This document shows positions 15,071-63,178 of a stretch of 64,000 nucleotides of DNA, piece by piece (the stretch's first letter is position 1; the number at the start of each line of letters is the position of its first letter). Below the pieces are notes generated by a model. The model saw nothing but the letters and a program-made list of their open reading frames with translations. It did no database searches and was not told the DNA's origin. A program made the translations under genes and the position numbers. Origin of the DNA: a virus (taxonomy: Duplodnaviria; Caudoviricetes); the IMG/VR virus record IMGVR_UViG_2936413993_000002, positions 11,053-75,052 of that record. The stretch is one strand, 5' to 3'.

Positions 15071-15206
15071 ACCGACAATATTTCCGCTTTCTCTTGTAGT
15101 ACTTGCAATGGCTGTTGTGTAACCAATTAAATCATTTAATTCTACATTGAAAGTAGATGCAGTACTACCTGCTTTACGAATAGAATTTGCTAAATCTAAT
15201 GTTGTT
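15071..15206 (-). CDS. Tape measure protein, exon 2 (136 nt; absent from ORF track)
   Basis: Reads TTLDLANSIRKAGSTASTFNVELNDLIGYTTAIASTTRESGNIVG, bridging exons 1 and 3 in frame. Confidence 0.88.
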
Positions 15207-21156: not shown

Positions 21157-22164
21157 TTAACCAAATATTTTATTCTTTTCTTCTTCGAAATCACGCAAGT
21201 CATAATGAGCAATAGTTGTAGCCACGTTTTCATGGTGGGCAACATATTTAGAGACTAATTCAAGTTTTACACCTTGCTCCAATAGATATGTGACACAAGA
21301 AGCTTTAAATAAGTGAGGATTAATCCGTCTACCTAATATGTCTGACAATGTGTTTGCACAAAAATAGTCAGCCCAAGAAGCTGACATCTGATCTATACTA
21401 CCATTATATTTAGTTGTAAAAATATACTCATGATCATACCCACGCTTATCTAACCATAGATTTATATAATCTAATGCCTCTCGATTAATCATGTAAGGTT
21501 CTATTTTTCCGTCTTCTCCACGTCCTTTCAGACGAACATTATGGCTATAAACAAAAGTAGCATCATCAGGGAAATTATAACTAGTGATCTCAGTTTTGAA
21601 TTGAATTATTTCTGAACGTCTAGCACCTACATTAAAGGCGGTGGATAACCAAGCCATACCTAAATAGTTTTCATCATTTTCTAAAACCGACATCATTTCC
21701 TTGTATTCTTCATATGTAACTTTAACCTTATCATATACCTTATTTTTGGGTATTGGAGGAAGACCACGAGTGAAGTTTCTGAACAATTTATAATCCTTAA
21801 AGTCATCTTCACCAACAATTACATTCTCGATATAATTACAAAGACTAGAAACACAAGCTTTCTTAAAACTAATTGCACTAGAAGACATTTTTCGGTTATC
21901 ACGTAAATAACTCATGTATCTTAAAAAGTCACGTTTAGTTATTTTATGTAGAGCTTTGTTATTCATAGCGTCATATACGTAATAGCCAAATTGCCTAAGA
22001 CCCGATATATATTGCTTTTTAGTAGCTGGAGAGTGGTTTTGTACTGAAACAAATTCTTCTACTAATTCACGATACTCTGCATTAACTAATTTCCACATTT
22101 CATCCGTCACTTCTGGTAATTTAGGGGCTCTATCACGAAGCATATTCTTTTCAATTTTACCCAA
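21157..22164 (-). CDS. Tyrosine recombinase (YomM-like)
   Basis: SAM-like N-domain; GARRSE (R), KGRG (K), NPHLFKAS (H-x-x-K), AHHE, HY (Tyr); same position as yomM in SPbeta. Confidence 0.85.
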   Translation of the reverse strand: MGKIEKNMLRDRAPKLPEVTDEMWKLVNAEYRELVEEFVSVQNHSPATKKQYISGLRQFGYYVYDAMNNKALHKITKRDFLRYMSYLRDNRKMSSSAISFKKACVSSLCNYIENVIVGEDDFKDYKLFRNFTRGLPPIPKNKVYDKVKVTYEEYKEMMSVLENDENYLGMAWLSTAFNVGARRSEIIQFKTEITSYNFPDDATFVYSHNVRLKGRGEDGKIEPYMINREALDYINLWLDKRGYDHEYIFTTKYNGSIDQMSASWADYFCANTLSDILGRRINPHLFKASCVTYLLEQGVKLELVSKYVAHHENVATTIAHYDLRDFEEEKNKIFG

Positions 22165-38361: not shown

Positions 38362-40944
38362 TCACTCTCCTAAAACTTTCATAAATTTATAGTGTCTTCC
38401 TAGAAATTCATGAGAATTGACATCTTGCTTTGAAGTTTCTACAATTTTTAATTCTTTTCGCTCATCTGAATTATGTTTAAGATTAGATAACATAACATCA
38501 CTAAACAATAGCCAACATAATGTTTTATCAGTGCTCATGGATCGGTATGCCGTTTTAACACAATAATTAGCTAACAGATAGTCATCACCTATGATTTTAT
38601 GTAATTTATTTTTATATAAATCGGCTATTGGTTTCATATCAATTTCTTCTTCAGTATCAAGTATTTCACGAAACTTCTCATCAAACTCAATTATAATTTT
38701 TCTTATTTTTTTCATTACCTTTTTGTCTTCTAGTTGTAATGAGTTATCTACTAAAAGATGACCATTATTAATTAAACTTCTATCCCAGTCAATCTTTCTT
38801 TTTTCCCATTGCTCAATGTATTCACATAACTCATTGAGTGGGGAGGGGGACTTAAATGCATTATATTCAACTCTTTCTATATAATTGTTCGACTTGTTGA
38901 TTGCTTTTAAACGATTGTAAACATCTAATTTTTTAGGATAGTTATGTAATAAAAAATATGGCAGTTTCTTTAAGTACTTTCTTAAATTCTTAGTTATTAT
39001 CCATCTAAATCCTGTTTTTAGAAAATCAATTTCTTTTCCCTGGTATAAACGTAACAAGGAAACATTATCAGCATTTACTTTTTTCCATTTTTCATTCTCG
39101 GTATAGTGATTAAGAATAGATGTAGCAATATTAGTAATCTCTCCAATTCTACTATCACGACTGTTACATTCATATTTCACAATCTCATCCATACAGTATT
39201 CTACTGGCTCAGTAGTTACTTTATCATCCATATCAACAACAATAGGAGTATTAATTTTGGAATTTATTAAAATAGGTTCTACGCTGAGAAAAACACTATC
39301 ACCATCCATATCCATTCCACCTTGTTGTTGCTGAGTTAAATCGTACATGTTTATCATGCAAATATCATGATTTTTCAAGTGTTGCAGATATTCATCAGTA
39401 AAATCATTTGTTGTTAATTTAATTTTATTAACTTCTGATGGATCGACCAAAGGACTTCTGAAAGAGACGGCATCTCCAATAGGGAAGGAATGTGTGAAAA
39501 ATTCACTTTCATGTAAACAACCTGTAATATTCAATCCCGCAGCATATTCTAAATAGCCTTTTATATCACCGACAACAGTATGATAAAAACCTTTAGCAAA
39601 AATCTTACCGTATTTCATTTGAGTAATTGTTTTGTCTAATTTACGTTTAAGCATTTTTTTAATACTTGGGTCTTTTAACATTGAGTCATTAGTTAAGATT
39701 GCTTGAATATATTTACTTTCTAAATCACTTTCAAGCGTATTGTTTATACCCAAAAACTTTAAGGAATATAATTTATCACCTTTGATTATTTTCTCCAGTA
39801 AATCAGTAGAGTAAGTAGCTAAATCAACTATCTTACCATTGTTATCTTTATCTAAAATGTCATATTTATCATGGTTCTTATATTGATCTATGTATTTTGT
39901 GTTCCACAAATCTAAACATTGAAGATACTGAAAGTTGAGCTTGGAGTATAAATTAATCTCATCTAAATGATGACTGTACTTACTAATACCTATTTTATAT
40001 CCATATTTATTAACTCTTTTTAGATACTCATTCCATCCTTCGCTTCCGAATTCTTTTTTGAATATGCCAGCGCCTTTCCACATTGATGTATTCCAAATAC
40101 AATCAATTTTATCAATATCATGCCACTTACCAAATACATCTTTTATCTTTGTAATAGGCGTATCTAAACTAGCGTAGTATTTTTTAAAATCCGTCTCGAT
40201 TGTTACACCTTTCATAAAGGGTAAGCGAATTTGAAATAGAACAGAATCGTGTGTACTAGCAGTATATTTAGAGAATAGTTTACTGATTTCTTTTGTATGT
40301 ACTCCAAAACCATCGAAAGGTAATATTTCTATATCAGTTGTACTTTCCTCAATAAATTTCTGATTTTTTGCAATTACTTTCTTATGAGTTTGCGGATTAG
40401 TATATTCCACATCTTTTTGTACAGCATATCTAACATGCTGATCATGTATCATTTTACTATATTCATCAACTATAACTATGTAAGGTAATTCTTCATCAAC
40501 CATTTGACAAGAGCTTAAAATTAAGTTTCGGTAGCTTTCATATTTGGAAATGACACATTTTTCAACTTTAACTCCTAGTTGACTACGTTCCATCATTTCT
40601 TCATATACGTCATTATCAATGAAAACTGTAACACCGTCTTTTGCTTGAGAAGAACTTTTCCCGTATCTCACAAACAATTTACCATTATAGTAAAAACCTT
40701 CTTTAAGTAGTTTTTCTAACAGAGGTCTGCGTTTTTTATTATGTTTAGCTTCAACGAATACAAGCTCATCGATTCTTTTTGTTTCTTTACCCCTAATCAA
40801 AGATAATTGTCTGAATAGGGGAGTATCCTGCTGTTGTATTATGTATTGTTTTTCATCTTCTTCAGTGATAGAAAAATTATAATCTGATTTGATGATTTGT
40901 TGAATTTTTATCTTTGGTAGTTCGAACATTTTAATTTTGTTCAT
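38362..40944 (-). CDS. yonO: YonO-type single-subunit two-barrel DNA-dependent RNA polymerase
   Basis: 860 aa; FDGFG, FQIRLPFMKG, RSP and catalytic GGMDMDGD (DxDGD); upstream of the late genes as in SPbeta. Confidence 0.9.
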   Translation of the reverse strand: MNKIKMFELPKIKIQQIIKSDYNFSITEEDEKQYIIQQQDTPLFRQLSLIRGKETKRIDELVFVEAKHNKKRRPLLEKLLKEGFYYNGKLFVRYGKSSSQAKDGVTVFIDNDVYEEMMERSQLGVKVEKCVISKYESYRNLILSSCQMVDEELPYIVIVDEYSKMIHDQHVRYAVQKDVEYTNPQTHKKVIAKNQKFIEESTTDIEILPFDGFGVHTKEISKLFSKYTASTHDSVLFQIRLPFMKGVTIETDFKKYYASLDTPITKIKDVFGKWHDIDKIDCIWNTSMWKGAGIFKKEFGSEGWNEYLKRVNKYGYKIGISKYSHHLDEINLYSKLNFQYLQCLDLWNTKYIDQYKNHDKYDILDKDNNGKIVDLATYSTDLLEKIIKGDKLYSLKFLGINNTLESDLESKYIQAILTNDSMLKDPSIKKMLKRKLDKTITQMKYGKIFAKGFYHTVVGDIKGYLEYAAGLNITGCLHESEFFTHSFPIGDAVSFRSPLVDPSEVNKIKLTTNDFTDEYLQHLKNHDICMINMYDLTQQQQGGMDMDGDSVFLSVEPILINSKINTPIVVDMDDKVTTEPVEYCMDEIVKYECNSRDSRIGEITNIATSILNHYTENEKWKKVNADNVSLLRLYQGKEIDFLKTGFRWIITKNLRKYLKKLPYFLLHNYPKKLDVYNRLKAINKSNNYIERVEYNAFKSPSPLNELCEYIEQWEKRKIDWDRSLINNGHLLVDNSLQLEDKKVMKKIRKIIIEFDEKFREILDTEEEIDMKPIADLYKNKLHKIIGDDYLLANYCVKTAYRSMSTDKTLCWLLFSDVMLSNLKHNSDERKELKIVETSKQDVNSHEFLGRHYKFMKVLGE

Positions 40945-41598: not shown

Positions 41599-41719
41599 TT
41601 TAGAACTCCTTTTATAATTTATTTTTATGAAGATATCGATTCTACGCTAAGTTTCTTTGATAGTATTCACGGAAACTTCAACTGATTCTACCAACCAATG
41701 TATTCATACCTAAAACCTA

Positions 41720-41995
41720 TTAATCTTCTTTTTTACCATGTAATTTAGACATTCTTTCACTCATAGCCTGACGTTGTTCTTCACTCATCACACGTTCCTT
41801 CTTCATACTTACTTGTTTTTCATTTAAAAGACCTTTAACTGCAGTAGGGCGACCATCCTCATTATCTAATATTTCAAGATCAGTCAATTCAGCTAATTTC
41901 CTAATATGTTTAGGACATGTACTATAAACACTCCACATACCAGTTCCATTATCGTAAACAAGTGTAGTTTCTTGTTCATCTCTGCTATACATCAT
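41720..41995 (-). CDS. Hypothetical protein
   Basis: EQETTLVYD...WSVYST.PKHIRKL...MSEEQRQ; SD AAAAGGAG. Confidence 0.7.
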   Translation of the reverse strand: MMYSRDEQETTLVYDNGTGMWSVYSTCPKHIRKLAELTDLEILDNEDGRPTAVKGLLNEKQVSMKKERVMSEEQRQAMSERMSKLHGKKED

Positions 41996-42133
41996 TTCAA
42001 TCCATCTCCTTTTATAAATATCAATTCTAAGCCAAGTAATTCCATATATTCACATAAAAACTCCATATGAAATAGAAGGGGAAGGTATTTATAAGCTTAG
42101 AGTAATACCTAATAATATGTAATTTATTTATAT

Positions 42134-42343
42134 TTAAAAACCATTATATGTATTCATTTCTCTAATAATCTCATTAATTAGCTTTCTATGTTTCTTTGTA
42201 TCTATGTATTCGCCTTGCCACTTAAACACCTGATAAAAGAGTTCCATTTCGTAAGAAGCAGATCCTTCTAGCATCATTTCCTCAACATAACTTATCACCT
42301 CACTTAAAGTATGTCGTTTCATCTTGCTGTCCATCCATTTCAC
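42134..42343 (-). CDS. Hypothetical protein
   Basis: 69 aa; SD AAGGAGGTG. Confidence 0.6.
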   Translation of the reverse strand: MKWMDSKMKRHTLSEVISYVEEMMLEGSASYEMELFYQVFKWQGEYIDTKKHRKLINEIIREMNTYNGF

Positions 42344-42471
42344 CTCCTTATTTGTAATTTAATTATATTTAAAAGTAAAAAAAATAAAATTTCCCTTGTC
42401 TATATTTTACATTACAAATTGAGTTTTTGTCAATTTAATTATATTTAAAACGATATGAGGGAAGAAACAAA

Positions 42472-42693
42472 TTATTCTTCATCGTCTATGTATACAAATA
42501 AATCATCAACCTTACAATTCAATATGTAGGCAATTTTGAATGCTGTTTCAATCGGTGGATTGTTATGACCATTTTTCCAATTAGTTATTGTCTGTTTGCT
42601 GACAGCTAATCTTTGAGCAAGTTCGGTATTACTCATATTAGCTTCTGCTAGTTTTATCTTTAGTTTTGATTCCAACATTATAAGTTCCCCCAT
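42472..42693 (-). CDS. XRE-family HTH regulator
   Basis: MSNTELAQRLAVSKQTITNWKNG...IAYILNCKVDDLF. Confidence 0.88.
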   Translation of the reverse strand: MGELIMLESKLKIKLAEANMSNTELAQRLAVSKQTITNWKNGHNNPPIETAFKIAYILNCKVDDLFVYIDDEE

Positions 42694-42801
42694 TGTTTCT
42701 ACCCTCCTTTAAAATATACTTGTCTAAAATGATTATAGCAAGTCTATTAAGAAAAGTACAATTATTTTTATAAAAGTACAGATAAATTTATATTTTTCTC
42801 T

Positions 42802-42832
42802 TGCATACTGCTTGTTTTTAAGTTTATACTCT
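42802..42832 (+). promoter_or_regulatory. Possible sporulation-sigma (SigE/SigG-like) promoter of the wHTH-tubulin operon
   Basis: TGCATA-N17-TATACTCT; partial match to the SigE consensus. Confidence 0.3.
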
Positions 42833-42899
42833 AAATCAGATAGACGAATATCATAGAAAATATTCAACTATTTCTAGCGATAGTCAAAAATATTTAAAG

Positions 42900-43223
42900 A
42901 TGAAGGAGGTAGTCATCATTATTACCGATACTTATTTTTATGAAATAGTAGACAGTCTAACAGTTAAGGATTTCTTTTTGCTCAGTTATTTAACAGAGAA
43001 CAATGCAACTGAGAAATTTAAATCAATCAAAAGAAGAAAAGTTGCAGAAGACATGTTAAACAGTGATGCGAGGATCACAGAAGCGACACTAAGAAAATGT
43101 CTTTATCGTTTAGAGCCAATGAAATTTATTGAAATAGTAAGAGAAGAAAAAGAATATAAAATGTTCGTTACACCAAGAGGAATTGAAGCTTTACAAATCA
43201 AATTGGAAAATGAGGGGGAATAA
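42900..43223 (+). CDS. Winged-helix DNA-binding protein (possible TubR-like adaptor)
   Basis: ITEATLRKCLYRLEPMKFIE...MFVTPRGIEAL wHTH pattern; 3 nt upstream of the tubulin gene. Confidence 0.7.
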   Translation: MKEVVIIITDTYFYEIVDSLTVKDFFLLSYLTENNATEKFKSIKRRKVAEDMLNSDARITEATLRKCLYRLEPMKFIEIVREEKEYKMFVTPRGIEALQIKLENEGE

Positions 43224-43226
43224 TAT

Positions 43227-44348
43227 ATGTATTTTGGATTCATAGGTCTTGGGCAAGCAGGAGGCAATATTGCGGATTTGGCAGCTAAGCATTTTTACAC
43301 TAGTGTAGCGATAAATTACTCAGAAACTGATTTAAAATCAATTACTAATATACCTGAGGATATGATTCACTCTTTATTAGGTAGCGAAGGGGTAGGTAAA
43401 GATAGAGAATTAGCTAAACAACTAATGAGAGATAACTGGGAATCAACTGTAAACTTTGTTAAAAAGCATTTATCCAAACCATCAATTGAAGTTATTTTAG
43501 TCCCATTCGGTACAGGTGGGGGAAGTGGTTCAGGGATGAGCTCATTATTATTAGAAATACTATCTAATGAGATGCCTGATAAAACATTTGTAGCTTGTCC
43601 GATTTTACCTGCCAACAATGAAACACTCAATAATAAACTAAATTCGTTAGAGGCTCTTAGTGAGTTATCCGATTTAGAATTTTGCGTTATTCCAATTGAC
43701 AACAATACAGTTCTAACTAATAGTAATACTTTTATCTCTAAAAATATCATTTATAAGAAAACTAACGAGGAATTCATTTCAATGATTAATAAGCTGCTAG
43801 AATACACAAATAAAAGCAGTGAAAATGGAGTGATTGATAGAAAAGATTTGCGACAAATATTCTCGGTGAAAGGAGTGTCAGTCATAGGTGTAGCAAAAGT
43901 GATGGATGTTTCAGGGACAGCATTAACAACTGATCATTTTGCTAAGGAAATACAAGAATCATGGATTAACAGTATATTCGCTCCTATTGAATACGATCAA
44001 GTAATTAGAGCGGGAGTTATTTTCAATGGAGATGACTACTTAATGGAACTTATGGATTATGATGAAATATTTAATGTTTTTAAAAATAAGCGTCCGTATG
44101 ATCTTTTTGAAGGAAACTATAAAGAGAAAAGAGGAGAAGTAATTTCTATCCTTAGTGGTCTACCTTGGATTAACTCAAGAATGCAAGAATTAGATACATT
44201 AGCAGATGAAGAAGAGAATACTCTTAATGAAATCAAAGTTGTTGAGTATAAGCCAAAAGCTAGAAAGAAAAGTGTAATTCCAGTAAGAAGTAGTAGCGTC
44301 AAGGCAAAAAGTAATCCTACTGATGTTTTTAATAAATATCTTCGTTGA
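43227..44348 (+). CDS. Tubulin/FtsZ-family GTPase (TubZ/PhuZ-like)
   Basis: GLGQAGGNIA, GVGKD, tubulin signature GTGGGSGSG, IDN, T7-like IDRKDL; basic C-terminal tail. Confidence 0.9.
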   Translation: MYFGFIGLGQAGGNIADLAAKHFYTSVAINYSETDLKSITNIPEDMIHSLLGSEGVGKDRELAKQLMRDNWESTVNFVKKHLSKPSIEVILVPFGTGGGSGSGMSSLLLEILSNEMPDKTFVACPILPANNETLNNKLNSLEALSELSDLEFCVIPIDNNTVLTNSNTFISKNIIYKKTNEEFISMINKLLEYTNKSSENGVIDRKDLRQIFSVKGVSVIGVAKVMDVSGTALTTDHFAKEIQESWINSIFAPIEYDQVIRAGVIFNGDDYLMELMDYDEIFNVFKNKRPYDLFEGNYKEKRGEVISILSGLPWINSRMQELDTLADEEENTLNEIKVVEYKPKARKKSVIPVRSSSVKAKSNPTDVFNKYLR

Positions 44349-44403
44349 TATCTATTTATTTCTAGCAATATTTGAAAATATTCGCCACAGCAGGAGTGAT
44401 AAT

Positions 44404-44592
44404 ATGAAAATTTATCAGCATAAATGTAAATCGTGTAATCGAGAATATAAAGGTGTAAGCAAATTTCCAAGTATCTGCACAGAATGTAAAAGAATAATTA
44501 TCGAGTGGTATTCTACTATTGATTTACTAATAAAAGAAGGAATGACGCCTGAGACTGTTTTAGAAAAATTAAAACTATCCCCTCCTAAATAA
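44404..44592 (+). CDS. Small Zn-ribbon protein
   Basis: ATG at 44404 after SD AGGAG; CKSC...CTEC. Confidence 0.55.
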   Translation: MKIYQHKCKSCNREYKGVSKFPSICTECKRIIIEWYSTIDLLIKEGMTPETVLEKLKLSPPK

Positions 44593-44628
44593 GAGGGAGG
44601 GGTAATTATTATTCAATTTATAAAAACA

Positions 44629-44659
44629 GTCATATTTTCCAACATGCAAATCATATAAT
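44629..44659 (+). promoter_or_regulatory. SigE-like sporulation promoter upstream of the pilin-like/ATPase operon
   Basis: GTCATA-N17-CATATAAT, close to the B. subtilis SigE consensus (-35 tCATA, -10 CATAca-T). Confidence 0.5.
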
Positions 44660-44710
44660 TTTCCCGAAGGATAAAACCTTTTGACGTAGGGAAAATTTTA
44701 GATAGCTTGT

Positions 44711-44776
44711 TTAGAACGGTAATAATCCAATTGTAATCAACGTTAAACCAACCCCAATTAAAGTCGCAGTTATCAT
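44711..44776 (-). CDS. Putative 21-aa hydrophobic peptide
   Basis: SD AAAGGTGG then ATG; MITATLIGVGLTLITIGLLPF. Confidence 0.35.
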   Translation of the reverse strand: MITATLIGVGLTLITIGLLPF

Positions 44777-44854
44777 CTTAGATTCCACCTTTCCATCTTG
44801 TCTTGTTTTTAATATCTCCTAAATATAATTAAATTATTCTTTGAAGTGGGTGAA

Positions 44855-44962
44855 ATGATGATTCCTTTTTTCGGTATGCTTTTTACAACTATTGTTTACT
44901 GGGCTTTCGGTTTTAAACATGTAAAAAGAATGGAGGAAAAGAAAAATGATCATAAGGATTAA
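44855..44962 (+). CDS. Putative 35-aa membrane peptide
   Basis: MMIPFFGMLFTTIVYWAFGFKHVKRMEEKKNDHKD; overlaps the start of the next gene. Confidence 0.4.
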   Translation: MMIPFFGMLFTTIVYWAFGFKHVKRMEEKKNDHKD

Positions 44963-45410
44963 TGGCGAAGAAATCAACGAACAAATACATCGTGAAATTA
45001 TAGATATATCCGAATACTTACCAAAGACTAAAAAAGAAGCAAAGAAGATGAAAAAGTTAGCAACGTGGTTATGGGGGATATCGGGAGTGATGATGTCTCA
45101 AAGTAGAGTATTTGCTTCTACCACTGGTGGAATGAACATTTGGAATAGTATGCAACCCTTATGGGATGTTTTCAAGGATATTAGCATGGTTTGTGGGACG
45201 TTGGCACTCTTTATCGGAGTAATTACTTTTTTGTTTAAACGTAACGCAGGTAAACAAGTCATATTGACTTCAGTCATTGTAATTGCAGGATGTTTCTTAA
45301 TTCCTTCAGCAGTTATGTTATTTGCAATAATAGGTAATATGCTGAATGATGTTTTAACAGAAGCTTTCCAGAATATGAATTTCAAAGATAGTGTAAAGGT
45401 GGGAGGATAA
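44946..45410 (+). CDS. TrbC/VirB2 pilin-like membrane protein
   Basis: Leader ending in VFA|S, then two hydrophobic helices separated by FKRNAGKQ; SD GGAGG. Confidence 0.55.
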   Translation: MIIRINGEEINEQIHREIIDISEYLPKTKKEAKKMKKLATWLWGISGVMMSQSRVFASTTGGMNIWNSMQPLWDVFKDISMVCGTLALFIGVITFLFKRNAGKQVILTSVIVIAGCFLIPSAVMLFAIIGNMLNDVLTEAFQNMNFKDSVKVGG

Positions 45411-45559
45411 TGCTAAAGAAAATAATCTTTACTATTATTGGATTTATATTTGGATATTTAATCGGATTTCCATATGGGATTTATTACACTGTGGAAGCAA
45501 ATGATAATTACTTTTTACTTAAAGCTATCTCTGTTATTAAGGCTATGATCGGCTTATGA
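45410..45559 (+). CDS. 49-aa membrane protein (not in ORF track)
   Basis: MLKKIIFTIIGFIFGYLIGFPYGIYY...; SD GGGAGG; overlaps both neighbours (TAATG, ATGA). Confidence 0.6.
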   Translation: MLKKIIFTIIGFIFGYLIGFPYGIYYTVEANDNYFLLKAISVIKAMIGL

Positions 45560-47943
45560 AAATTATTATGTTGGGACATTTAAATGATCCATTAATTAAA
45601 AAGAAAGTAATAAAAAATACATTTCCCATGAAAGTGGAATTTACAGTTATTCCTAAAGTTGAACAAGTGATAGAAATACCTGAAGAACTGCAGCAAAAAG
45701 AATTCAAAATACCTGAAATAAAATTCAACTTCCAAATTCAACAACCAGAATTAGTAACTTATCAAATAAAACCAACTCCATCCACTAAAAATGATAAAGT
45801 GCATCTTCTATTAGATTATCTTTCCGACTCTTTTCAAGAATTAGCGCATATGACCAACCAATTCAAGATGGATAGTGATGGAATTACACTACCTGTTCAA
45901 AATAAGTTTTTCTTTGAAACAAAAATAACTAATAAAGAATATTCCAACTATATGACTTTCCCAAAAAATATTGAAGAAGAAACGCTTCAGACAATGAATT
46001 TTACATGGCATAAAGCAGCCAAGGTAAATGTTAGTAATCCCATACCTAACGTAACTAACCATACTGTATGTTTCGATTTAAAACTTAAATATACCCCTGG
46101 GTTATCACTATCAGTTGATCAACGTTTAAAGGAAAAGCCTATAAGAGAACTAATGGAACAATCACAATCCATTCGAAGTGGTGAAGATGTTTTTATACAA
46201 TTTGGCATTCAGCCTGCAGAGTTTGATTGGTGGAGAGAAGCTAAGAAAAGAAATTCTTCTCTTCCTAAACGTAAAAGTGTTTCTGAATCAAGCAATTCTA
46301 AATTAGGAAATCCAGCGTTTGATTGTTGTTTGAGAGTAATAGTAAATGGCGAGAGTATTAGAAGGTCAGAAATGATTTCGAGAGGGATCATATTAGCTTT
46401 AAAACAACTTAATGGAGACAATGAATTAGTTGAAATACAAATTAAAAACAAAAAACTATATAAATGGTATAAAAAATATGTGGAAAGAAGAAAAATCGAG
46501 ACTTATTTCTTTAACTTTAATAAGCGCTTTTTGTTGACTAGAAAAGAAATTAAACACTTTATTAAATTGCCTGAAAGAAATATACAAAAAGACTTTGACT
46601 TAGGTATTGACGAAAGACAAGAATTGTCTGTGAATAAAATGTTAACTAAAAAGGACGGTATTTTAATTGGTCACACGGAAGACAAAGGTAAACAGGTTGA
46701 GATAAGATTGCCAAGCGATAACTTGGATGCATTGTGTAATACTAATGTACTTACAGGGTCGCCAAGAATGGGAAAAGATACGGCTGCTATTAATATGATA
46801 GTTGAATTTGCTAACACAATAAATGCAGGAGCCATTGTACCTGATGTCATTGATGAAAAAGGAAACGGTCGTGGAATGTGTGATTCTTTATTAGAGTCAT
46901 TACCTAGTGATAGAATAATCGACATTAATCTCGGTGATTACAATAATCCTGTATATTTTGGATTAGAAGATGTAGCTCATTTAATCGGAGTAAATGGAAT
47001 GAACGTAATAGCTGATAATTTCACCAAAGTACTCGGACTAGAAGACACAACAACTTCTCAGGAAATCTGTTCATTGGTAGCTAAGGTATGTAAATGTAAT
47101 CTTTACGATATGTATTGTTGTCTAAAGTCTAAACAATTTGCAAACAGTATGTATGAAATTGTAAAAGAGGAAGATGAGTTACTAGCTTTAGAATATTATC
47201 ATGATTTCTTAAACGCTAAAAATGAAAAAGCAATAGCAACTGTAAAAACTAGACTGAAAATGATTTTAGGTAATCCGCATTTTAAGCATATGATTGCACA
47301 GGAGCCTAACAAGAATATTGATATTGAGAAATGGATTAGAGAAAGAAAAATAGTTCTGTTTAGAATGAAAAAAGTAAATATTGGAGATATAGGTGTTCAA
47401 ATACTTATGTATTTACTAACAATGAAAGTATTTTGGATTAAGAAAATTATCCAAACTGATGATCCTACATTGATTGTATTCAATGAACCACACCAGTTTA
47501 TGTCCGATGGCTTCCAAGAACTAGCTGAATCCATGATGGCTGAATGTCCAAAGTATAGATTGTGTATTAATTGGTTATTCCACAATCCAAGTCAACTACC
47601 GGATAAACTATGGAATATCATGAAATCTAGTAGTTGTAATAACTTCATATTTAAAAATACTAATTGGAAGATATACAATGACTTAAAAGAACAATTACAG
47701 CCAATAGAAGTGGAAACAGCTATGAAAACCAATCGTTACGAATCCATATTTATGCCTTTTATAAATGGTATGCAATTAGATCCTTTTTTTGTGAAAATGT
47801 TACCCCCTCCAGTTAAAAGAGGAATTAAATATGATAATGCAGATATTACTACCAAACATACAAGGAAATATGGCACTCCTGTAGAAGAAGTAAGGAAAAG
47901 AATAATGGAAATAGAATTAGCAATGTATAGTGAAAGTGCTTAG
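45556..47943 (+). CDS. VirD4/TraD-HerA-like P-loop ATPase (T4SS coupling/translocase-like)
   Basis: Walker A GSPRMGKD, Walker B IVFNEPHQF, E.PKYRL...HNPSQL motif; extended N-terminal domain. Confidence 0.75.
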   Translation: MKIIMLGHLNDPLIKKKVIKNTFPMKVEFTVIPKVEQVIEIPEELQQKEFKIPEIKFNFQIQQPELVTYQIKPTPSTKNDKVHLLLDYLSDSFQELAHMTNQFKMDSDGITLPVQNKFFFETKITNKEYSNYMTFPKNIEEETLQTMNFTWHKAAKVNVSNPIPNVTNHTVCFDLKLKYTPGLSLSVDQRLKEKPIRELMEQSQSIRSGEDVFIQFGIQPAEFDWWREAKKRNSSLPKRKSVSESSNSKLGNPAFDCCLRVIVNGESIRRSEMISRGIILALKQLNGDNELVEIQIKNKKLYKWYKKYVERRKIETYFFNFNKRFLLTRKEIKHFIKLPERNIQKDFDLGIDERQELSVNKMLTKKDGILIGHTEDKGKQVEIRLPSDNLDALCNTNVLTGSPRMGKDTAAINMIVEFANTINAGAIVPDVIDEKGNGRGMCDSLLESLPSDRIIDINLGDYNNPVYFGLEDVAHLIGVNGMNVIADNFTKVLGLEDTTTSQEICSLVAKVCKCNLYDMYCCLKSKQFANSMYEIVKEEDELLALEYYHDFLNAKNEKAIATVKTRLKMILGNPHFKHMIAQEPNKNIDIEKWIRERKIVLFRMKKVNIGDIGVQILMYLLTMKVFWIKKIIQTDDPTLIVFNEPHQFMSDGFQELAESMMAECPKYRLCINWLFHNPSQLPDKLWNIMKSSSCNNFIFKNTNWKIYNDLKEQLQPIEVETAMKTNRYESIFMPFINGMQLDPFFVKMLPPPVKRGIKYDNADITTKHTRKYGTPVEEVRKRIMEIELAMYSESA

Positions 47944-47973
47944 AGTGATGGTTTATTACTGTCACTCTATTTT
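47941..47973 (+). terminator. Terminator after the ATPase gene
   Basis: TAGAGTGATGG...CTGTCACTCTA followed by TTTT. Confidence 0.6.
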
Positions 47974-48186
47974 CTGTGTCTATATGACCAATTCTAAGGT
48001 ATTCAGGAGACTTACTGTGAGGATTTAAAGTAGGGAAGGTGTAAATGCTAGGGTATTTATTAGGACACTATATAAAGCTAATACGTAAGCTAGAATCAAT
48101 ACTGTAATTTAATTATAATTAAGTATTGTGTTTTAAATATAAATAAATTACAATTATGGTTATAAAACGATAAAGGAGAGGATTAT

Positions 48187-49974
48187 TTGACTGAACTGAA
48201 TGAGCAACAGAAAGCTGCAGTTGAAGTTACAGAAGGAGCTTTTGGTGTAATTGCAGGAGCCGGTAGTGGGAAAACGAGAATAATTTTAGAAAGGGTTAGG
48301 AATTTAATTGATGTTCATGGAGTGCCAGAAAATGAGATTCTTGCTATTAGCTTTACCAATAAAACTGCTACTGAATTAAAGAACAAATTATCAAAGATGG
48401 GATTTAACGATATTCACGTAGGAACATTTCACGCTATATGTGGAAGAATATTGGCTAAAACTGGGAGTTACATTAATAGTAGAAACTTAATTAAGGATTG
48501 GCAAATTGAAAATGAGTTTAAGCGAATTGATCCCAAGGTGAATACATCAGAAGTTTTGTCATGGATTTCATATCAAAAGAACTATATGAGAATGCCAAAT
48601 GATGAGTTTGTTTATAAAGAGAATAATTACACAGAAGATACATTAAGAATGCTCTATCTCACATATGAAGAGTTTAAGAAAAAGAAAAGGTTGTGTGACT
48701 TTGATGACTTTTTATTAGAGTGTTATAAGGTATTAAAGGAAAATCCAGATTTAACAGATTATACATATGTTCTTATTGACGAGCATCAGGATTCAAATCT
48801 TGTACAAAATGAGTTGCTAAAATTGTTAGCTAAGAAGGGTAATATATTCGCCGTGTATGATACCCGTCAGTCAATTTATAGCTTTAGAGCGGGAAACTTA
48901 GAATATGCAATGCAATTTCAAAAGGATTGGAATGCTAAAATACTCCATTTGGATATAAATTATCGCTCAACTAGAAATATTGTTAACTCAGCAAATGAAT
49001 TCATACGTCCTTATTTTGAACACTTTGAGCATTACCAAGATTCCATTCCGAATAGCAAAGAAGATGGGGAAATAACATTACATACATATCAAACTAGAGA
49101 AGATGAAGCTGTAAAAGTAGTTGACCATATTGAGAGATTAATAGAAGAAGGGGAAGAGCTAAAAGAAATATCTGTATTATATCGTATGAATGCCCATGCT
49201 GCTCATATAGAAAATGAACTGAGAGCAAGGGAGATTGATTACGATATTACATCTACAGATTCATTTTTCCAAAGGAAAGAAATACTGGCAATTATGAGTT
49301 ATTTAAGATTGGTACATAATTTGCAAGATGACGCAGCTTTCATAAACATATTCAATTTACGCAATGATCCATTAAAGTTTTTTAAGAATAGTGTGTTGAA
49401 GGATATCCAAGAACAATCTGCTAAGAATGGGCTATCTCTATATGAGAATTTCTTGGATTATAAGTTTGATGCTAAATGGCATTATGAGAAGAAGAATCAA
49501 TTTGAACAAAACATAAACAGGTTGAGAATGCAGAAGGAACGTAACATAGGAATTAAAAGTTTGATTGATAATATAATTAAATTGTTTAAATTAAAGAACT
49601 ACATATATGAAACTTATACTAATGAGGAAGAAATCCAGGAACGATTGAAAAACATGAACATACTGAAAGGGTTTGTTAAGACAGACAACTTAGAGGAGTT
49701 TATCAATTACGTTTATGGAACGAATTTGAGTAAGAAAGCTAAGAAGAATAGTGTTAAGTTGATGAGCGTTCATTCCTCAAAAGGTCTTGAATTTTCAAAT
49801 TGTTTCTTAGTTGGAGTAGAAGAAAAGAAATTTCCACATGAGAAGGCAAAGTTAGATGAGGAGAGTAGGCTCTGGTATGTTGCTGTGACGAGAAGTAAGA
49901 AGAACTTATACATAAGTCAAATTGGAGAAGGATCTCAATTTATTGAGGAGTATTTTGGAGATATGGTCAATTAA
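48187..49974 (+). CDS. UvrD/PcrA-family SF1 DNA helicase
   Basis: AGAGSGKT, FTNK, TFHA, DEHQD, QSIYSFR, NYRS, HSSKGLEF, YVAVTR motifs. Confidence 0.93.
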   Translation: MTELNEQQKAAVEVTEGAFGVIAGAGSGKTRIILERVRNLIDVHGVPENEILAISFTNKTATELKNKLSKMGFNDIHVGTFHAICGRILAKTGSYINSRNLIKDWQIENEFKRIDPKVNTSEVLSWISYQKNYMRMPNDEFVYKENNYTEDTLRMLYLTYEEFKKKKRLCDFDDFLLECYKVLKENPDLTDYTYVLIDEHQDSNLVQNELLKLLAKKGNIFAVYDTRQSIYSFRAGNLEYAMQFQKDWNAKILHLDINYRSTRNIVNSANEFIRPYFEHFEHYQDSIPNSKEDGEITLHTYQTREDEAVKVVDHIERLIEEGEELKEISVLYRMNAHAAHIENELRAREIDYDITSTDSFFQRKEILAIMSYLRLVHNLQDDAAFINIFNLRNDPLKFFKNSVLKDIQEQSAKNGLSLYENFLDYKFDAKWHYEKKNQFEQNINRLRMQKERNIGIKSLIDNIIKLFKLKNYIYETYTNEEEIQERLKNMNILKGFVKTDNLEEFINYVYGTNLSKKAKKNSVKLMSVHSSKGLEFSNCFLVGVEEKKFPHEKAKLDEESRLWYVAVTRSKKNLYISQIGEGSQFIEEYFGDMVN

Positions 49975-50012
49975 ATAAAAATAAATTATATAATACAAAG
50001 GATGATGTTGAG

Positions 50013-50804
50013 ATGGATTTAACTATTGTAGAACAAAATAATCAATTATTAGTGGATAGTCGTGAAGTTGCAGAAATGGTTGAAATAGAACATAAAGAAT
50101 TGTTGCGTAAAATTGAAGGTACTGAAAATGGTAAATATATAGGGTACATACCTACTTTAACTAAGGGGAAAATTCCCCCTAGTGACTTTTTTATTAAAAG
50201 TAATTATATAGATAGAACAGGAAGGAACGCAAAACACTATCTGTTAACCAAGAAGGGTTGCGATATGGTAGCAAATAAATTAACTGGTGAAAAGGGGATA
50301 TTATTCACCGCTACATACGTAACCAAGTTTGAAGAAATGGAAAATAAATTAAAACATGTTACATTACACTCTTACATGATTGAAGATCCAATTGCCCGTG
50401 CTGAAAAGTGGATTGAGGAGCAGAAGGAGAGGAAACGTATTGAAACTCAGAAGCTGATGTTAGAACAGCAAGTTAAAGAGTATGAACCTAAAGTAACTTA
50501 TTATGATGAGATTCTTAAATCTAAAACTGCTATGACAATTACTCAAATTGCTAAAGATTACGGAATGTCAGGTAAAGCAATGAATCAATTATTACATAAA
50601 GAGAAAGTACAATACAAACAAAGTGGTCAATGGTTATTATATAGTAATCATCAAGATAAAGGGTACACTAAGTCAGATACTCACTTAGATAAGAAAGGAA
50701 ATGCGCATATGAATACTAAATGGACACAGAAGGGTAGATTATTCATTTATGATTTATTAAAGCGTAAAGATGTTTTACCTGTCATGGAACAGAATGAAAA
50801 ATAA
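50013..50804 (+). CDS. Phage antirepressor, Rha N-terminal + KilAC C-terminal
   Basis: VDSREVAEMV...HKELLR, LTKKGCDMVANKLTGEKG, PKVTYYD, KWTQKGRLFI. Confidence 0.9.
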   Translation: MDLTIVEQNNQLLVDSREVAEMVEIEHKELLRKIEGTENGKYIGYIPTLTKGKIPPSDFFIKSNYIDRTGRNAKHYLLTKKGCDMVANKLTGEKGILFTATYVTKFEEMENKLKHVTLHSYMIEDPIARAEKWIEEQKERKRIETQKLMLEQQVKEYEPKVTYYDEILKSKTAMTITQIAKDYGMSGKAMNQLLHKEKVQYKQSGQWLLYSNHQDKGYTKSDTHLDKKGNAHMNTKWTQKGRLFIYDLLKRKDVLPVMEQNEK

Positions 50805-52749: not shown

Positions 52750-53445
52750 ATGAACAACAAACAAACTCTAGTATTCAATCAATATGAAGTAACTGAACTA
52801 TCAACTAATGAATGGAATAGAGATATCACTAAACATATGGTAGCATACAAACAACTTAAAGATGCTGAGGTTATCACTGAAGAACAACTAAACAATCTAA
52901 TTGATTCTGGTTGCTACTTTTGGATCAAAGTTGTAAATAACAATCCTTTCTACAATAAAGACTCATACTTAATTGAACTTACTTTAATGTACACTAATAA
53001 AGCTATCTCACTATACATAAACAAAGAAGCTTTAAACAAACATGATGACACTGTAACAGAGGAAGTTGTTATAACTGAAGATATTCAAGAAGAAGCTAAC
53101 ACTATTGAGAATACTGAAGAAGTTTACTATACAGTTGCTAACATCTCATTCAAAACTTTAGAGGAAGCTCAGGTATACTGTGATGGTTCAGACTTTGAAT
53201 ATACGATTATCCAAGAAATAAAAGAAATAAATTATAATGATAAAATTGAAATAGAATCAACTAAACCAACTAAACAAGAAGAATCAAATTACTGGTATCA
53301 ATACTCTTTAAGAGGGTTCTCACCTTATTGTCAGCCTAAAGGACATGTTAAACTTGATGATTCAATAGGAAGATATGGAGCTATAGCATACAATAGACAA
53401 CTAACATCAAATGAGCTAGAAGAATATGAACTATTAGCAATATAA
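52750..53445 (+). CDS. Early protein with C-terminal DarA_C-like (defence against restriction) domain
   Basis: YQYSLRGFSPYCQPKG...YGAIAYNRQLTSNELEEYEL matches the pattern of DarA C-terminal polyvalent domains. Confidence 0.65.
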   Translation: MNNKQTLVFNQYEVTELSTNEWNRDITKHMVAYKQLKDAEVITEEQLNNLIDSGCYFWIKVVNNNPFYNKDSYLIELTLMYTNKAISLYINKEALNKHDDTVTEEVVITEDIQEEANTIENTEEVYYTVANISFKTLEEAQVYCDGSDFEYTIIQEIKEINYNDKIEIESTKPTKQEESNYWYQYSLRGFSPYCQPKGHVKLDDSIGRYGAIAYNRQLTSNELEEYELLAI

Positions 53446-55969: not shown

Positions 55970-57127
55970 ATGAATATAAGTAAATTACAAATAGGAAAAG
56001 AATATAAAAATTATAAAGTTTTATGTTCAGAGCTTGGTGAACCTATTAAATCTGGTAAATCTAAAATACTTCAGCTTGAACAATTTAAGAATCATTTTAG
56101 CTATGAGAAAAAAGGCAATAAATTTGTAATAAGTAAAGTCTTTGATTTACCTGCACAATCCAATGCAAAGGTTAAAGGTAGAAAGCTGGATAAACATACT
56201 GACTTAGTTAGAAGTTTAATACTTGATGAACTAAATAACAGTGATAACGATGGTCATTTATTCATAACTGCTAATCAATTATTAAAAAGTGTAGATATGA
56301 TAAATACAAATTATACATATGCAAAAAGAAAACTGTTACGATTTGCAAAATATATCGATATGGGACTTGATGAAGTACAAGAATTTTTTACAACTTCTGA
56401 TAGTATGTTAAAAAGATCAATAGAATCAGCACTTAACAGTCTTCAAAATGAAAGTTTAATTATTTGGAATAGTGCTTTAACTGTGTGTAAAGCTGATTTA
56501 GAAACTCTAACATATAATGATTTAGGTGAAGTTCAATTAGATGTTACGGAAACTTACAACGAGTTTGAAGAAGTAAATTCAGAAGCTAAACTACTCAACT
56601 CAAAAGGTAAATTTATTCATCGTAAAGCTACAGAAGAGGAAGCAAAACTAATAGTTACCGAACGCAAAAGATTACTAAAAACTGTATATAAATGTGACAA
56701 TGTTCAAGAGGTTTTCAGAAAGAATAAACAGGATGAATTCTATCAGGAATTAAGAAGTATCCTTATGGAGAAAGCTAACATTTACTTTTTTTATAATTCT
56801 TATGAAATAACATTCACAGAGGAATACGTTAATGAAGAATGGAATGAGATGATGGAATACCAAATTAATAGATTAAAAGGAAATGTAGATATCAGAGAGA
56901 TAGTTAATGATAGTGTAATTAATAAACTCCAGGCGAATTCATTAAGAAGACATAAAAAAGCATTAATTACTGATACAAGTAAAAAGAGTATAGCTGCAGC
57001 ATCTAGAATAAATATGAGAATGAAAGATACATACGCAGAAAATCAGAACAGATTATCGGAACTGTTAATATATAATAAAGCAATTAGCATCTTTAATGAT
57101 ATGGAAGAGGTAAATGTTCAGTCTTAA
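55970..57127 (+). CDS. Putative DNA-binding/replication-initiator-like protein (YonV-like)
   Basis: 385 aa; N-terminal YKNYKVLC.ELGE..KSGKSK..QL domain; followed by an inverted repeat. Confidence 0.5.
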   Translation: MNISKLQIGKEYKNYKVLCSELGEPIKSGKSKILQLEQFKNHFSYEKKGNKFVISKVFDLPAQSNAKVKGRKLDKHTDLVRSLILDELNNSDNDGHLFITANQLLKSVDMINTNYTYAKRKLLRFAKYIDMGLDEVQEFFTTSDSMLKRSIESALNSLQNESLIIWNSALTVCKADLETLTYNDLGEVQLDVTETYNEFEEVNSEAKLLNSKGKFIHRKATEEEAKLIVTERKRLLKTVYKCDNVQEVFRKNKQDEFYQELRSILMEKANIYFFYNSYEITFTEEYVNEEWNEMMEYQINRLKGNVDIREIVNDSVINKLQANSLRRHKKALITDTSKKSIAAASRINMRMKDTYAENQNRLSELLIYNKAISIFNDMEEVNVQS

Positions 57128-57345: not shown

Positions 57346-58281
57346 ATGAATACAAGTAAATTAGAAGTAGGGAAAACGTATAAAAACTATAAAGAACTAT
57401 GCCTATCAATGGGAGAAAAAGTTAAAACGAGTAAATCAAAACTAAAACATATAGACGACATGTCTAAGTATTTCATCACAAAAAGATGGGGCGACAACTT
57501 TATTGTATTACACATATATGATAAACCATTAGAATTGAATAATAAAGAAGAATGGATGAATAAATTAATCTCATATTTAGAAGTTAAACATTTTAAATAT
57601 TCAAGTGAATCCACAATTTTTCTAAGAGGAGACTCAATAATAAAAGAAATTAAATTTCTATTAAACGAGCATATTAATAATAAAATCCAAGCAATAAACA
57701 AGGTTGTTGAAGTTAGTACGAAAAATATTGAAATTTATTACAACTTAGATGACAGTGGAATATTAGAGTACATAGACATAGCATTGAGAAAATTAAGAGG
57801 ACAATGTAAATTATACTATGATAGATATGATATTATTAATCAAAGATTTAAAGTTTTAGTTAATTCTAGTCATTATAAACGTGAAATTATCAAAGATGAT
57901 ATTAATAAATTGAAACTTGAAAATTATTTAATTGAAGGAAATTCAGTGATACAAGGGATTTATGCAATTGTTAATTGTATAAATGGCAAAAAATATATAG
58001 GTAGTTCAGTAGATATAAATAGGAGAATTAAAGATCACTTTTCAGATTTAAAGAAAGAAGAACATCATAACTACAAATTAAAAGATGATTATAGTAAATA
58101 TGGAAATGATAGTTTCAAGGTTATTATTTTGGAGGAAGTAAACAATAAAAAAGATCTTCCGTCAAAGGAAAAAATCTGGATAAATGAATTTGGTGGACTT
58201 TATAGTGATTTCTTGTATAATATGTCTGATCCTATGAAGGAAGAGGGAGTAATAAAAAATAGATCTCGGAAATTCAATTAA
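57346..58281 (+). CDS. GIY-YIG endonuclease with N-terminal domain paralogous to the 55970 protein
   Basis: GIYAIVNCINGKKYIGSS...R...H...HHN...YN; N-terminal YKNYKELCLSMGEKVK. Confidence 0.85.
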   Translation: MNTSKLEVGKTYKNYKELCLSMGEKVKTSKSKLKHIDDMSKYFITKRWGDNFIVLHIYDKPLELNNKEEWMNKLISYLEVKHFKYSSESTIFLRGDSIIKEIKFLLNEHINNKIQAINKVVEVSTKNIEIYYNLDDSGILEYIDIALRKLRGQCKLYYDRYDIINQRFKVLVNSSHYKREIIKDDINKLKLENYLIEGNSVIQGIYAIVNCINGKKYIGSSVDINRRIKDHFSDLKKEEHHNYKLKDDYSKYGNDSFKVIILEEVNNKKDLPSKEKIWINEFGGLYSDFLYNMSDPMKEEGVIKNRSRKFN

Positions 58282-62611: not shown

Positions 62612-63178
62612 ATGAAAATAGATTTTAAGATTACAGAATTATTGACTCTACCAGCATCCATCATGGCTGCAATTTGCTTAGCAAGTGGGACATTATTGTT
62701 TTCTCCTGTTTCATTTATAGAGAAACTTTACATGCTTGCATTCAGAGAAAAATACGGATTTATAATTGGAGTAGTATTTCTGATATCATTGTGTATTTTA
62801 ATCGTAAATATCGCTTATACAACCTTAAACTATATTGCAACTTCACGAGCAGAAAAAAGGTTTTTTGCAAATGCAGGTAAGAAGCTGAGAAAACTAAGTA
62901 CATATCAAAAAGCAATTGTTTATGGATTATACCAGGAAGAGAACCGAACGCATGTTTTACCTTTACACGATGGAGCTGTAAGAGAATTAGAACACAATCA
63001 AATCATTGGAAAGGTGTCTAGTCAGTACATGGTTCCAAATCTAAATAATGCTATGATTCCTTATATGGTACAACCTTGGGTAATTGATGAGTTAGATAAG
63101 GATCAAGACCTATTAACAGATTACCAGAATGCATTTAATAAAATGGACAATGATGAAGGAAACGGGAATTCCTTCTAA
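62612..63178 (+). CDS. Superinfection exclusion B (SieB)-like membrane protein
   Basis: Two N-terminal TM helices then L..LS..QKA.V...LPL.DG.V.EL....II pattern. Confidence 0.6.
   Translation: MKIDFKITELLTLPASIMAAICLASGTLLFSPVSFIEKLYMLAFREKYGFIIGVVFLISLCILIVNIAYTTLNYIATSRAEKRFFANAGKKLRKLSTYQKAIVYGLYQEENRTHVLPLHDGAVRELEHNQIIGKVSSQYMVPNLNNAMIPYMVQPWVIDELDKDQDLLTDYQNAFNKMDNDEGNGNSF

Follow-up and report, generated by a model that had tools for sequence, protein, structure and literature searches.

A predicted tubulin-type DNA-segregation pair beside a translocase-like ATPase cassette in a Bacillaceae prophage, and the recurrent linkage of such modules in phages

Positions 42900–47943 of the prophage sequence analysed here (IMG/VR record IMGVR_UViG_2936413993_000002) hold two modules side by side: a predicted TubR-TubZ DNA-segregation pair, and a cassette of small membrane proteins with an ATPase related to gp32 of phage SPP1. 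The window denotes the whole 64,000-nucleotide stretch, bases 11053–75052 of one 75,052-bp virus record, and positions are those of the window. Our observations are the gene identities, the fold class of the ATPase, the conserved gene order and the recurrent linkage of such cassettes with filament genes in other phages. As the leading hypothesis, to which we assign a probability of about 0.5, the two modules would cooperate on phage DNA at the membrane as a filament-fed DNA translocon. Both modules are of known kinds and the cassette had already been flagged in print; new here are the pairing in its tubulin form, the wide occurrence of the linkage and an antisense peptide gene in the cassette leader.

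Two operons and their products

The seven open reading frames (ORFs) listed in the first-pass annotation were all recovered in place and co-oriented. They form operon 1 (42900–44592) and operon 2 (44846–47943), with the following products (aa, amino acids):

42900–43223, plus strand: TubR, winged-helix centromere-binding adaptor (profile match to solved TubR)
43227–44348, plus strand: TubZ-type tubulin/FtsZ GTPase (Pfam Tubulin, 3.7e-16, above the cut-off)
44404–44592 (ORF 44323–44592), plus strand: Zn-ribbon protein, CxxC...CxxC, accessory of the Tub operon (weak Pfam zinc-ribbon matches only)
44846–44962, plus strand: tiny single-pass membrane protein, 38 aa, or 35 aa from the first ATG (ORF; homologues in relatives)
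44946–45410, plus strand: VirB2/TrbC-like membrane protein, 154 aa, hereafter p154 (phrog_13699, 3.8e-42)
45410–45559, plus strand: single-pass membrane protein, 49 aa, hereafter p49 (phrog_16518, 1.2e-13; alignment)
45556–47943, plus strand: soluble P-loop ATPase, 795 aa, SPP1 gp32 family (phrog_5156, 2.1e-193)

The identities proposed earlier for the winged-helix protein and the tubulin-like GTPase were upheld by profile matches to solved TubR and TubZ structures. A profile built from 24 homologues of TubR (107 aa) matched TubR 4asn_A (1.6e-30) and 6tey_A (2.2e-15). For TubZ, the best solved relatives were TubZ 4xcq/3v3t with the single sequence (1.3e-10), and a 29-sequence profile matched 4xcq at 8.5e-36 over positions 2–336, near full length; G98, G99, G101, D204 and D207 were invariant. 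A TubR homologue lay directly upstream of TubZ in all 80 tubulin-centred loci taken from viral contigs. Operon 1 is predicted to encode a TubR-TubZ type III DNA-segregation pair. Its third gene probably starts at the internal ATG at 44404, yielding 62 aa, a start favoured because the length agrees with that of a 60-aa homologue in locus L042. Since homologues of the Zn-ribbon protein were found only in the window and in L042, among the ORFs of all loci compared, the gene appears to be a lineage-specific extra of the Tub operon.

The overlapping start and stop codons described for the second operon were present in all four ORFs, with starts at 44946 before the end at 44962, at the shared position 45410, and at 45556 before the end at 45559. 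The stop of p49 overlaps the start of the ATPase by 4 nucleotides (nt), and p49 is predicted to be translationally coupled to it. The positions of p49 and of the 38-aa protein are conserved among relatives; homologues of the latter precede the p154 gene in L003, L017, L016, L002 and L020. For p154 itself, the pilin-like assignment gained support from profile–profile and protein-atlas comparisons. Besides a long leader and a signal-like segment, the protein has two hydrophobic helices (78–98 and 101–134 by hydropathy), joined by a short basic loop with conserved K98 and G102; a long leader followed by such helices is the TrbC/VirB2-type layout. In hhalign, the p154 family matched a TrbC-like group of proteins from sister cassettes with a probability of 81.6% (E 1.1e-5). 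In that sister group, 14 of the 22 pilin-like proteins matched Pfam TrbC/VirB2 at E ≤ 0.01 (best 3.9e-7), and two members scanned singly scored under the 27.9-bit TrbC cut-off. One neighbouring protein-atlas cluster of p154 (score 0.85), treated as a lead, had TrbC in 16% of its members.

The ATPase belongs to the type IV coupling-protein/VirB4/HerA-FtsK superfamily, in agreement with the earlier VirD4/HerA-like call, which was borne out by fold and protein-atlas evidence. SPP1 gp32 itself matched phrog_5156 (1.4e-288), and BLASTP aligned the window ATPase with gp32 at 7e-56 over residues 231–781 only. An AlphaFold2 model based on 41 sequences (mean pLDDT, the per-residue model confidence, 85.4) was compared with the PDB using Foldseek, which ranked TrwK/VirB4 first (7e-12, about 870 columns), ahead of HerA (2e-11) and TrwB (2e-7). 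Full-length relatives among viral models came from the Bacillus phages JL (template-modelling score, TM, 0.67), G (gp156) and Slash. In the protein atlas, likewise used as a lead, the ATPase had a feature score of 0.98 and TM values of 0.70–0.77 to clusters with TrwB_AAD_bind, DUF87, TraG-D_C and DUF8128. Across the 41 sequences G401, G406, K407 and E644 were invariant; by eye, they presumably represent conserved Walker A and Walker B-type motifs.

Membership of a named family was not found for the window ATPase. It matched neither the coupling-protein Pfam families T4SS-DNA_transf, TrwB_AAD_bind and TraG-D_C nor CagE_TrbE_VirB and AAA_10, which we take to be the VirB4 family names. Two relatives barely reached Pfam cut-offs (L082, TrwB_AAD_bind, 20.6 against 20.5 bits; L092, T4SS-DNA_transf, 21.3 against 20.1 bits), and a Pfam rescan of homologues reported to carry PF26449 gave no match in the Pfam copy used. 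The N-terminal transmembrane anchor of coupling proteins was also missing: no hydrophobic segment occurs in the ATPase, and the N-terminus of the model is a soluble alpha/beta domain.

Linkage of filament systems and translocase cassettes

By tblastn, 103 of 50,697 phage records contain the ATPase; lytic SPP1, SPO1 and SP-10 are among them, as are siphophages of the Basilisk and Slash types. The hosts were Bacillus (91 records), Geobacillus (5), Lysinibacillus (2), Alicyclobacillus, Brevibacillus and Microcystis (1 each), with a 'Deep-sea' thermophilic phage in 2. Nearly all of these hosts are Bacillales, and, with the exception of Microcystis, we take the host genera to be endospore formers. 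Among 401 genomes of the phylum, eight matches were found, three of them strong. Few uncharacterised modules of Bacillus-group phages are as widespread as the gp32-type cassette.

For the gene neighbourhoods, four incomplete loci (L014, L015, L023 and L040) were set aside from 43 ATPase loci; the other 39 formed 28 clusters at 90% identity, and partners were counted within 10 kb on this and on the TubZ side. A pilin-like gene lay upstream of the ATPase in every one of the 28 clusters. A ribbon-helix-helix (RHH) gene was present in 23 and was replaced by TubR in 2 of the 5 others, and an M23 peptidase was present in 9, mostly fused to the small membrane protein. SPP1 conforms to this arrangement, with gp31 of the RHH type, gp31.1 pilin-like, gp31.2 a small membrane protein and gp32 the ATPase.

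Filament genes accompanied the cassette in two forms. A ParM-like actin was within range in 11 of the 28 clusters (Pfam ALP_N 8e-19, 8e-13). Its gene usually lies directly upstream, so that actin, RHH, pilin-like protein, small membrane protein and ATPase follow one another; in L007, one of the 11, the actin gene is 3.7 kb downstream of the ATPase on the opposite strand, and in Basilisk-type phages the actin-RHH pair lies 1.3–2 kb downstream. ParM-like matches occurred in 57 of the 50,697 phage records, at least 16 of which also carry the ATPase, 1–3.5 kb away. The second form, TubR-TubZ, was near the ATPase in two clusters, those of the window and of L003.

Seen from the tubulin, the survey covered 80 loci with a TubZ ORF of more than 250 aa (78 of the 80 viral-contig loci, the window and L003), which fell into 37 clusters at 70% identity. 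A gp32-family ATPase was near TubZ in 8 clusters. In another 8 its place was taken by an FtsK/SpoIIIE ATPase (Pfam 1.3e-49). A TrbL/VirB6-like protein (at 1.4e-4, short of the cut-off), a 205-aa membrane protein and, in some cases, an M23 protein accompany this ATPase. The TubZ of L042 is 86% identical to that of the window, yet the start of the FtsK-type set replaces the window cassette there. In the jumbo phage G (L124), the TubZ-like gp138 with a small upstream gene lies 9.4 kb from gp155-156, in a genome of 497 kb. Because analogues substitute on both sides (TubR-TubZ or ParM/RHH, and gp32-type or FtsK/SpoIIIE), the linkage points to more than chance adjacency. The pairing of a cytomotive system with a membrane ATPase, which the first-pass annotation had proposed from the window, gains comparative support from its recurrence, with non-homologous substitutes, in many lineages. 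It is not obligate: 15 of the 28 ATPase clusters are without a partner within 10 kb, as are 21 of the 37 TubZ clusters.

Several further observations were made on the related loci. The FtsK-type set follows TubR-TubZ in L058 (11320–17966), L062, L068, L069, L077, L083, L084 and L085, and in L042 at 11475–13831; the FtsK/SpoIIIE ATPase of these sister loci has a C-terminal MarR-like winged helix. In phage G, the two regions are at 13686–15113 and 24491–28633 of L124; gp155 is 'VirB-like' and gp156 is a structural relative of the window ATPase. A small membrane protein with the motif 'M-I-x-R-I-N-G' carries an N-terminal M23 fusion in L012 (8265–8984), L034, L035, L004, L032 and L033, and this fused form has a C-terminal anchor and no signal peptide. 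In many viral contigs of 60–68 kb (L024, L028–L031, L036, L038 and L039), the ATPase gene stops about 0–400 bases before the contig end, which suggests a genome terminus or a prophage boundary directly after the cassette in those contigs.

Comparison with described systems

The first-pass annotation knew of no described system with this composition; this overstated the novelty, as the cassette corresponds to genes 31.1–32 of SPP1 (PMC6316719) and such neighbourhoods have been remarked on in PMC9658697. PMC6316719 reports HHpred similarity of gp32 to TrwB, VirB4 and FtsK, and proposes, in 2018, that gp32 with gp31.1 and/or gp31.2 forms a trans-membrane translocon with a role still to be established. 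PMC6145125 does not mention the gp32 gene, and in the literature, supplementary files aside, no experimental function of the gp32-type cassette was found. The window and SPP1 share the ATPase family phrog_5156 and the order DNA-binding protein, pilin-like protein, small membrane protein, ATPase. Unlike SPP1, the window has TubR-TubZ in the place of the RHH protein gp31, membrane proteins of PHROGs 13699 and 16518 rather than 5422 and 20592, and the antisense 21-aa gene; in addition, its ATPase aligns with gp32 over the limited range given above.

In PMC9658697 (2022), genes for TrbC/VirB2, Replic_Relax and FtsK/SpoIIIE are noted as often lying beside phage plasmid-segregation systems; this takes the form of an annotation note, with neither a survey nor a mechanism. 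ParM-like/RHH and TubZ/TubR systems of plasmid prophages are described in PMC8026635 and PMC11526630. The ParM-like/RHH systems of the Bacillus plasmid prophages IEBH and B83 (PMC8026635 and PMC9658697) resemble the window in having a motor and an adaptor followed by pilin-like and translocase-like genes. They differ in the motor, which is a tubulin rather than an actin in the window, and in the ATPase, which is of the gp32 rather than the FtsK/SpoIIIE family.

With the type III TubZRC systems (TubZ/TubR of the Clostridium botulinum phage c-st, and the Bacillus plasmids pBtoxis and pBM400), the window shares the order tubR-tubZ, the profile matches to solved TubR and TubZ, and a basic C-terminal tail of TubZ. 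In contrast to those systems, the pair is located in an integrated provirus fragment and not on a plasmid, no iterons were found in 42300–45000, and an additional Zn-ribbon gene and then the membrane ATPase cassette directly follow. Type IV secretion systems (TrwB/TraD/VirD4, VirB4, VirB2) are similar in ATPase fold class and nearest named families, in the pilin-like partner and in the DNA-binding adaptor alongside. The window ATPase differs from theirs in having no transmembrane anchor, no Pfam match, an N-terminal DUF8128-type domain and a phage setting, and no relaxase, VirB6, VirB8 or VirB11 was found with the window cassette. Finally, the double-stranded DNA pumps FtsK, SpoIIIE and TraB are of the same ATPase superfamily, and a true FtsK/SpoIIIE protein occupies the equivalent place in 8 TubZ clusters, whereas the window ATPase has neither an FtsK_SpoIIIE match nor a membrane domain.

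A proposed filament-fed translocon and its alternatives

In the filament-fed translocon, TubR would bind a site on the phage DNA and the TubZ filament would move the TubR-bound DNA. The ATPase may assemble as a ring and dock on the cytoplasmic face of the membrane via the small membrane proteins. The adaptor, TubR here and an RHH protein in most relatives, would mark the phage DNA and recruit it to the ATPase; this step is suggested by the parallel with conjugation, where the RHH-type proteins TrwA and TraM recruit the coupling proteins TrwB and TraD to DNA. Where a filament is present, it may bring the DNA to the site, and the phage DNA would be brought to, and probably moved through, the VirB2-like membrane conduit. 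Candidate barriers are the sporulation septum, the division septum toward a sister cell, and the envelope toward another cell. A more specific version, a dedicated system in phages of endospore-forming Firmicutes, seems unlikely: the adaptor would mark the genome, a tubulin or actin filament would deliver it to a pole or septum, the ATPase and the VirB2-like conduit (with an M23 wall hydrolase in some variants) would carry it through the sporulation or division septum to the forespore or sister cell without a virion, and the antisense 21-aa gene would gate the process. The cassette was also considered as a motor for first-step DNA entry; this was rejected as hard to square with headful-packaged, permuted genomes such as that of SPP1.

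A number of findings weigh against the filament-fed translocon. Some concern the ATPase and p154: by sequence, the ATPase had no significant match in Pfam (E ≤ 0.1), NCBIfam or the solved structures; its profile returned HerA as the sole result among solved structures (E 0.086), with no VirB4; and the Foldseek TM to VirB4 was only 0.34–0.37, with HerA scoring almost equally. No Pfam match, including TrbC (PF04956), was obtained for p154 itself. On the DNA side, no centromere iteron family was present in 42300–45000, upstream of tubR included; by eye, only two copies of a 9-mer, 21 bp apart, were seen. The loci surveyed are from related phages of one host order, and their counts do not represent independent events.

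Other counterpoints also favour a rival reading, in which the modules are independent and share only a neighbourhood. TubRZ would then segregate or position phage DNA, for example that of an excised or replicating prophage; the cassette would have a non-DNA role, for instance in exporting proteins or pilin, in remodelling the envelope or in excluding superinfecting phages; and the location would be a common slot for early accessory and plasmid-like genes in Bacillales phages. Consistent with this, a terminator-like hairpin (44579–44602) parts the tubulin operon from the cassette. Neither TubZ nor actin accompanied the ATPase in the 15 partnerless clusters, lytic SPP1 among them, and the cassette without a filament gene also occurs in strictly lytic SPO1. 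Neither type of cassette was found in the 21 partnerless TubZ clusters, which include a 20-member cluster of viral contigs of about 125 kb and all distant TubZ groups (27–31% identity). PHROG places the p154 family under 'moron, auxiliary metabolic gene and host takeover'. In section 3.4 of PMC6316719, gp32 is non-essential in SPP1, and host takeover and superinfection exclusion are named as likely roles of the SPP1 early accessory genes. Independence is hard to reconcile with the replacement by analogues on both sides, which a shared neighbourhood alone hardly explains, with the DNA-binding RHH gene that belongs to the cassette in 23 of 28 clusters, and with the nearest named ATPase families, which are coupling proteins with DNA as substrate. 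We regard it as possible, and hold it tentatively.

A remnant or minimal conjugation-like apparatus that passes prophage or phage-plasmid DNA to neighbouring cells is, in our estimate, very improbable. The VirB2/TrbC-like and coupling-protein-like components would fit it, as would the M23 hydrolase, TrbL/VirB6-like and FtsK/SpoIIIE components of relatives and the Replic_Relax genes reported beside such genes in other Bacillus phages (PMC9658697). The earlier statement was that no relaxase or other type IV secretion genes are visible in the window; in the whole 75,052-bp record, itself an estimated 58% complete, Pfam Relaxase, Replic_Relax and FtsK_SpoIIIE had no match. A VirB6 or VirB8 homologue was not found in the window either. 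These absences also count against the filament-fed translocon. Against the conjugation-like apparatus also stand the occurrence of the cassette in strictly lytic phages and the nature of the record as an integrated provirus fragment, where such genes could lie elsewhere.

The pairing with two unrelated cytomotive systems, and the FtsK/SpoIIIE replacement in sister loci, offer a concrete, testable hypothesis on what the cassette does, namely phage DNA handling at a membrane or septum. If the filament-fed translocon is true, it would explain the placement of phage genomes in spores or sister cells, and the conjugative coupling proteins would gain a viral relative that acts together with a cytoskeletal filament. 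Even if it is wrong, these genes can be annotated more sharply thanks to the survey.

The intergenic region and the question of sporulation control

The sequences around and between the operons hold the following features:

42801–42830, plus strand: candidate Tub-operon promoter, TTGCAT-18-TATACT (read from the sequence, with a putative function; absent from the sigma-70 scan list)
44579–44602, both strands: bidirectional terminator-like hairpin between the operons (8 pairs, 6 of them G-C, then a T-rich tail)
44629–44660 (core 44630–44660), plus strand: sigma-E-like motif, GTCATA-17-CATATAAT (TCATATT-15-CATATAAT; consensus scan)
44654–44700, no strand assigned: hairpin with 12-nt arms beside the 3' end of the antisense peptide gene (inverted repeat)
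44711–44776, minus strand: gene for a 21-aa hydrophobic peptide, antisense to the cassette leader (ORF; homologues in the same place)
47941–47969, plus strand: terminator-like hairpin ending the cassette (12 pairs, then a T run)

The antisense 21-aa gene had been overlooked in the first-pass annotation. A homologue of 20–21 aa was present in the same place in all 11 loci of the p154 type, and in phage Basilisk the gene is annotated as gp98. The gene may encode a membrane subunit, or may serve as a regulatory or type I toxin-like element. Equivalents of the hairpin at 44654–44700 were seen by eye in L003, L001, L016 and L019, with arms that vary between lineages and complementarity that is kept.

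The first-pass annotation had suggested that both operons are under sporulation sigma factors. For operon 1, the sequence at the weaker site (near 42802) is TTGCAT-18-TATACT, which fits neither sigma type well; the DNA from about 42791 to the tubR start is almost identical in the window and L042. For operon 2, the quoted motif GTCATA-17-CATATAAT was indeed present, with a core at 44630 that has one mismatch to the sigma-E consensus, taken here as [GT][AC]ATATT, 13–15 nt, CATA-A-[ACT]T. On both strands of the window (128 kb), this consensus had 2 matches, the site at 44630 among them, against 0.26 expected, and 2 were reached in 4 of 100 dinucleotide shuffles.

In a sporulation reading, mother-cell or forespore sigma factors would switch the system on, and phage DNA would be placed in or pumped into the forespore. 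The rarity of the motif by chance argues for this, as does its near identity in L003, whose proteins are just 50–60% identical to those of the window. The Basilisk, L016 and Slash lineages also keep a CATAAA[AC]T element at this position, with a different upstream half. The host genera listed above, presumably endospore-forming apart from Microcystis, fit as well, although the host range may merely mirror phylogeny. Some cassette variants have a membrane-anchored M23/LytM domain, which the sporulation channel protein SpoIIQ employs as well. Set against these points, the Basilisk and Slash lineages retain neither the -35 part nor its spacing, and L072 and L076, in which the cassette comes directly after TubZ, lack the motif. 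The same site holds a perfect TATAAT, and a second one is located at 44824–44829, just upstream of the first gene of the cassette. The sigma-E-like element abuts the hairpin that flanks the antisense 21-aa gene at its 3' end; the conservation of the element may therefore serve that gene, as part of a 3' structure. In PMC6316719, the SPP1 homologues are in unit PE5, one of five polycistronic units termed early.

Assembled RNA-Seq contigs (runs X19 and X20 of one study), compared over window positions 41600–50100, were 90–99% identical across tubR, tubZ, the intergenic region, p154, p49 and the ATPase start, and two further runs of uncertain kind also covered relatives of tubR to the ATPase start. 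These contigs indicate the presence of related sequence and carry no information on transcription, strand or condition; the stretches that they leave uncovered are equally uninformative. Sporulation-sigma control thus kept a motif that is rare by chance and conserved in L003, and lost its generality, as the motif is absent or partial in other lineages. Because the motif is not conserved across lineages, TATAAT is present and the SPP1 unit is early, dependence on a particular sigma factor would not seem decidable from the sequence, and we consider the sporulation reading doubtful.

Host and flanking genes

IMG/VR classes the whole record as a provirus fragment with a completeness estimate of 58%. 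The nearest homologue of the ATPase is a Niallia protein (96% identical) encoded on a 2.99-Mb contig. From these two observations, the element is an integrated prophage of a Niallia-like Bacillaceae host; its complete size is probably about 130 kb. Searched with megablast, the flanks gave one short match to phages and none to plasmids.

The stretch at 42900–47943 is the first rightward early region of this large prophage fragment. Near 42 kb the GC skew switches sign, in keeping with divergent transcription from about that point. The leftward, minus-strand side of the window has structural genes, an Xre-type repressor-like gene and a gene for an 860-aa protein, and a UvrD-type helicase and an anti-repressor are encoded rightward of the cassette. 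The repressor-like gene, with homologues equally positioned in L003 and L042, is as follows:

42472–42693, minus strand: Xre/CI-type helix-turn-helix repressor-like gene, divergent from the Tub operon (Pfam HTH_26 4.8e-14, HTH_3 1.8e-12, Phage_CI_repr 1.7e-6)

The 860-aa protein (38362–40944, minus strand) has an MDMDGD motif and matched phrog_8308, with no Pfam match. Its positional counterpart in L045 matched Pfam RdRP (1.5e-10), which suggests that the 860-aa protein may be a YonO-type single-subunit RNA polymerase; YonO-like polymerases are typical of SPbeta-type phages. A tyrosine recombinase (21157–22164, minus strand; Pfam Phage_integrase, 2.2e-12) lies amid the leftward genes, distant from the repressor region. 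Elsewhere in the window, a SieB superinfection-exclusion homologue is encoded at 62612–63178 (Pfam, 5.7e-34), and another protein (52750–53445) carries a DarA_C anti-restriction domain (6.8e-7). Two adjacent genes (55970–57127 and 57346–58281) matched phrog_36702, and the second of them has a homing-endonuclease-like C-terminal part; the pair looks like a duplication or an endonuclease insertion.

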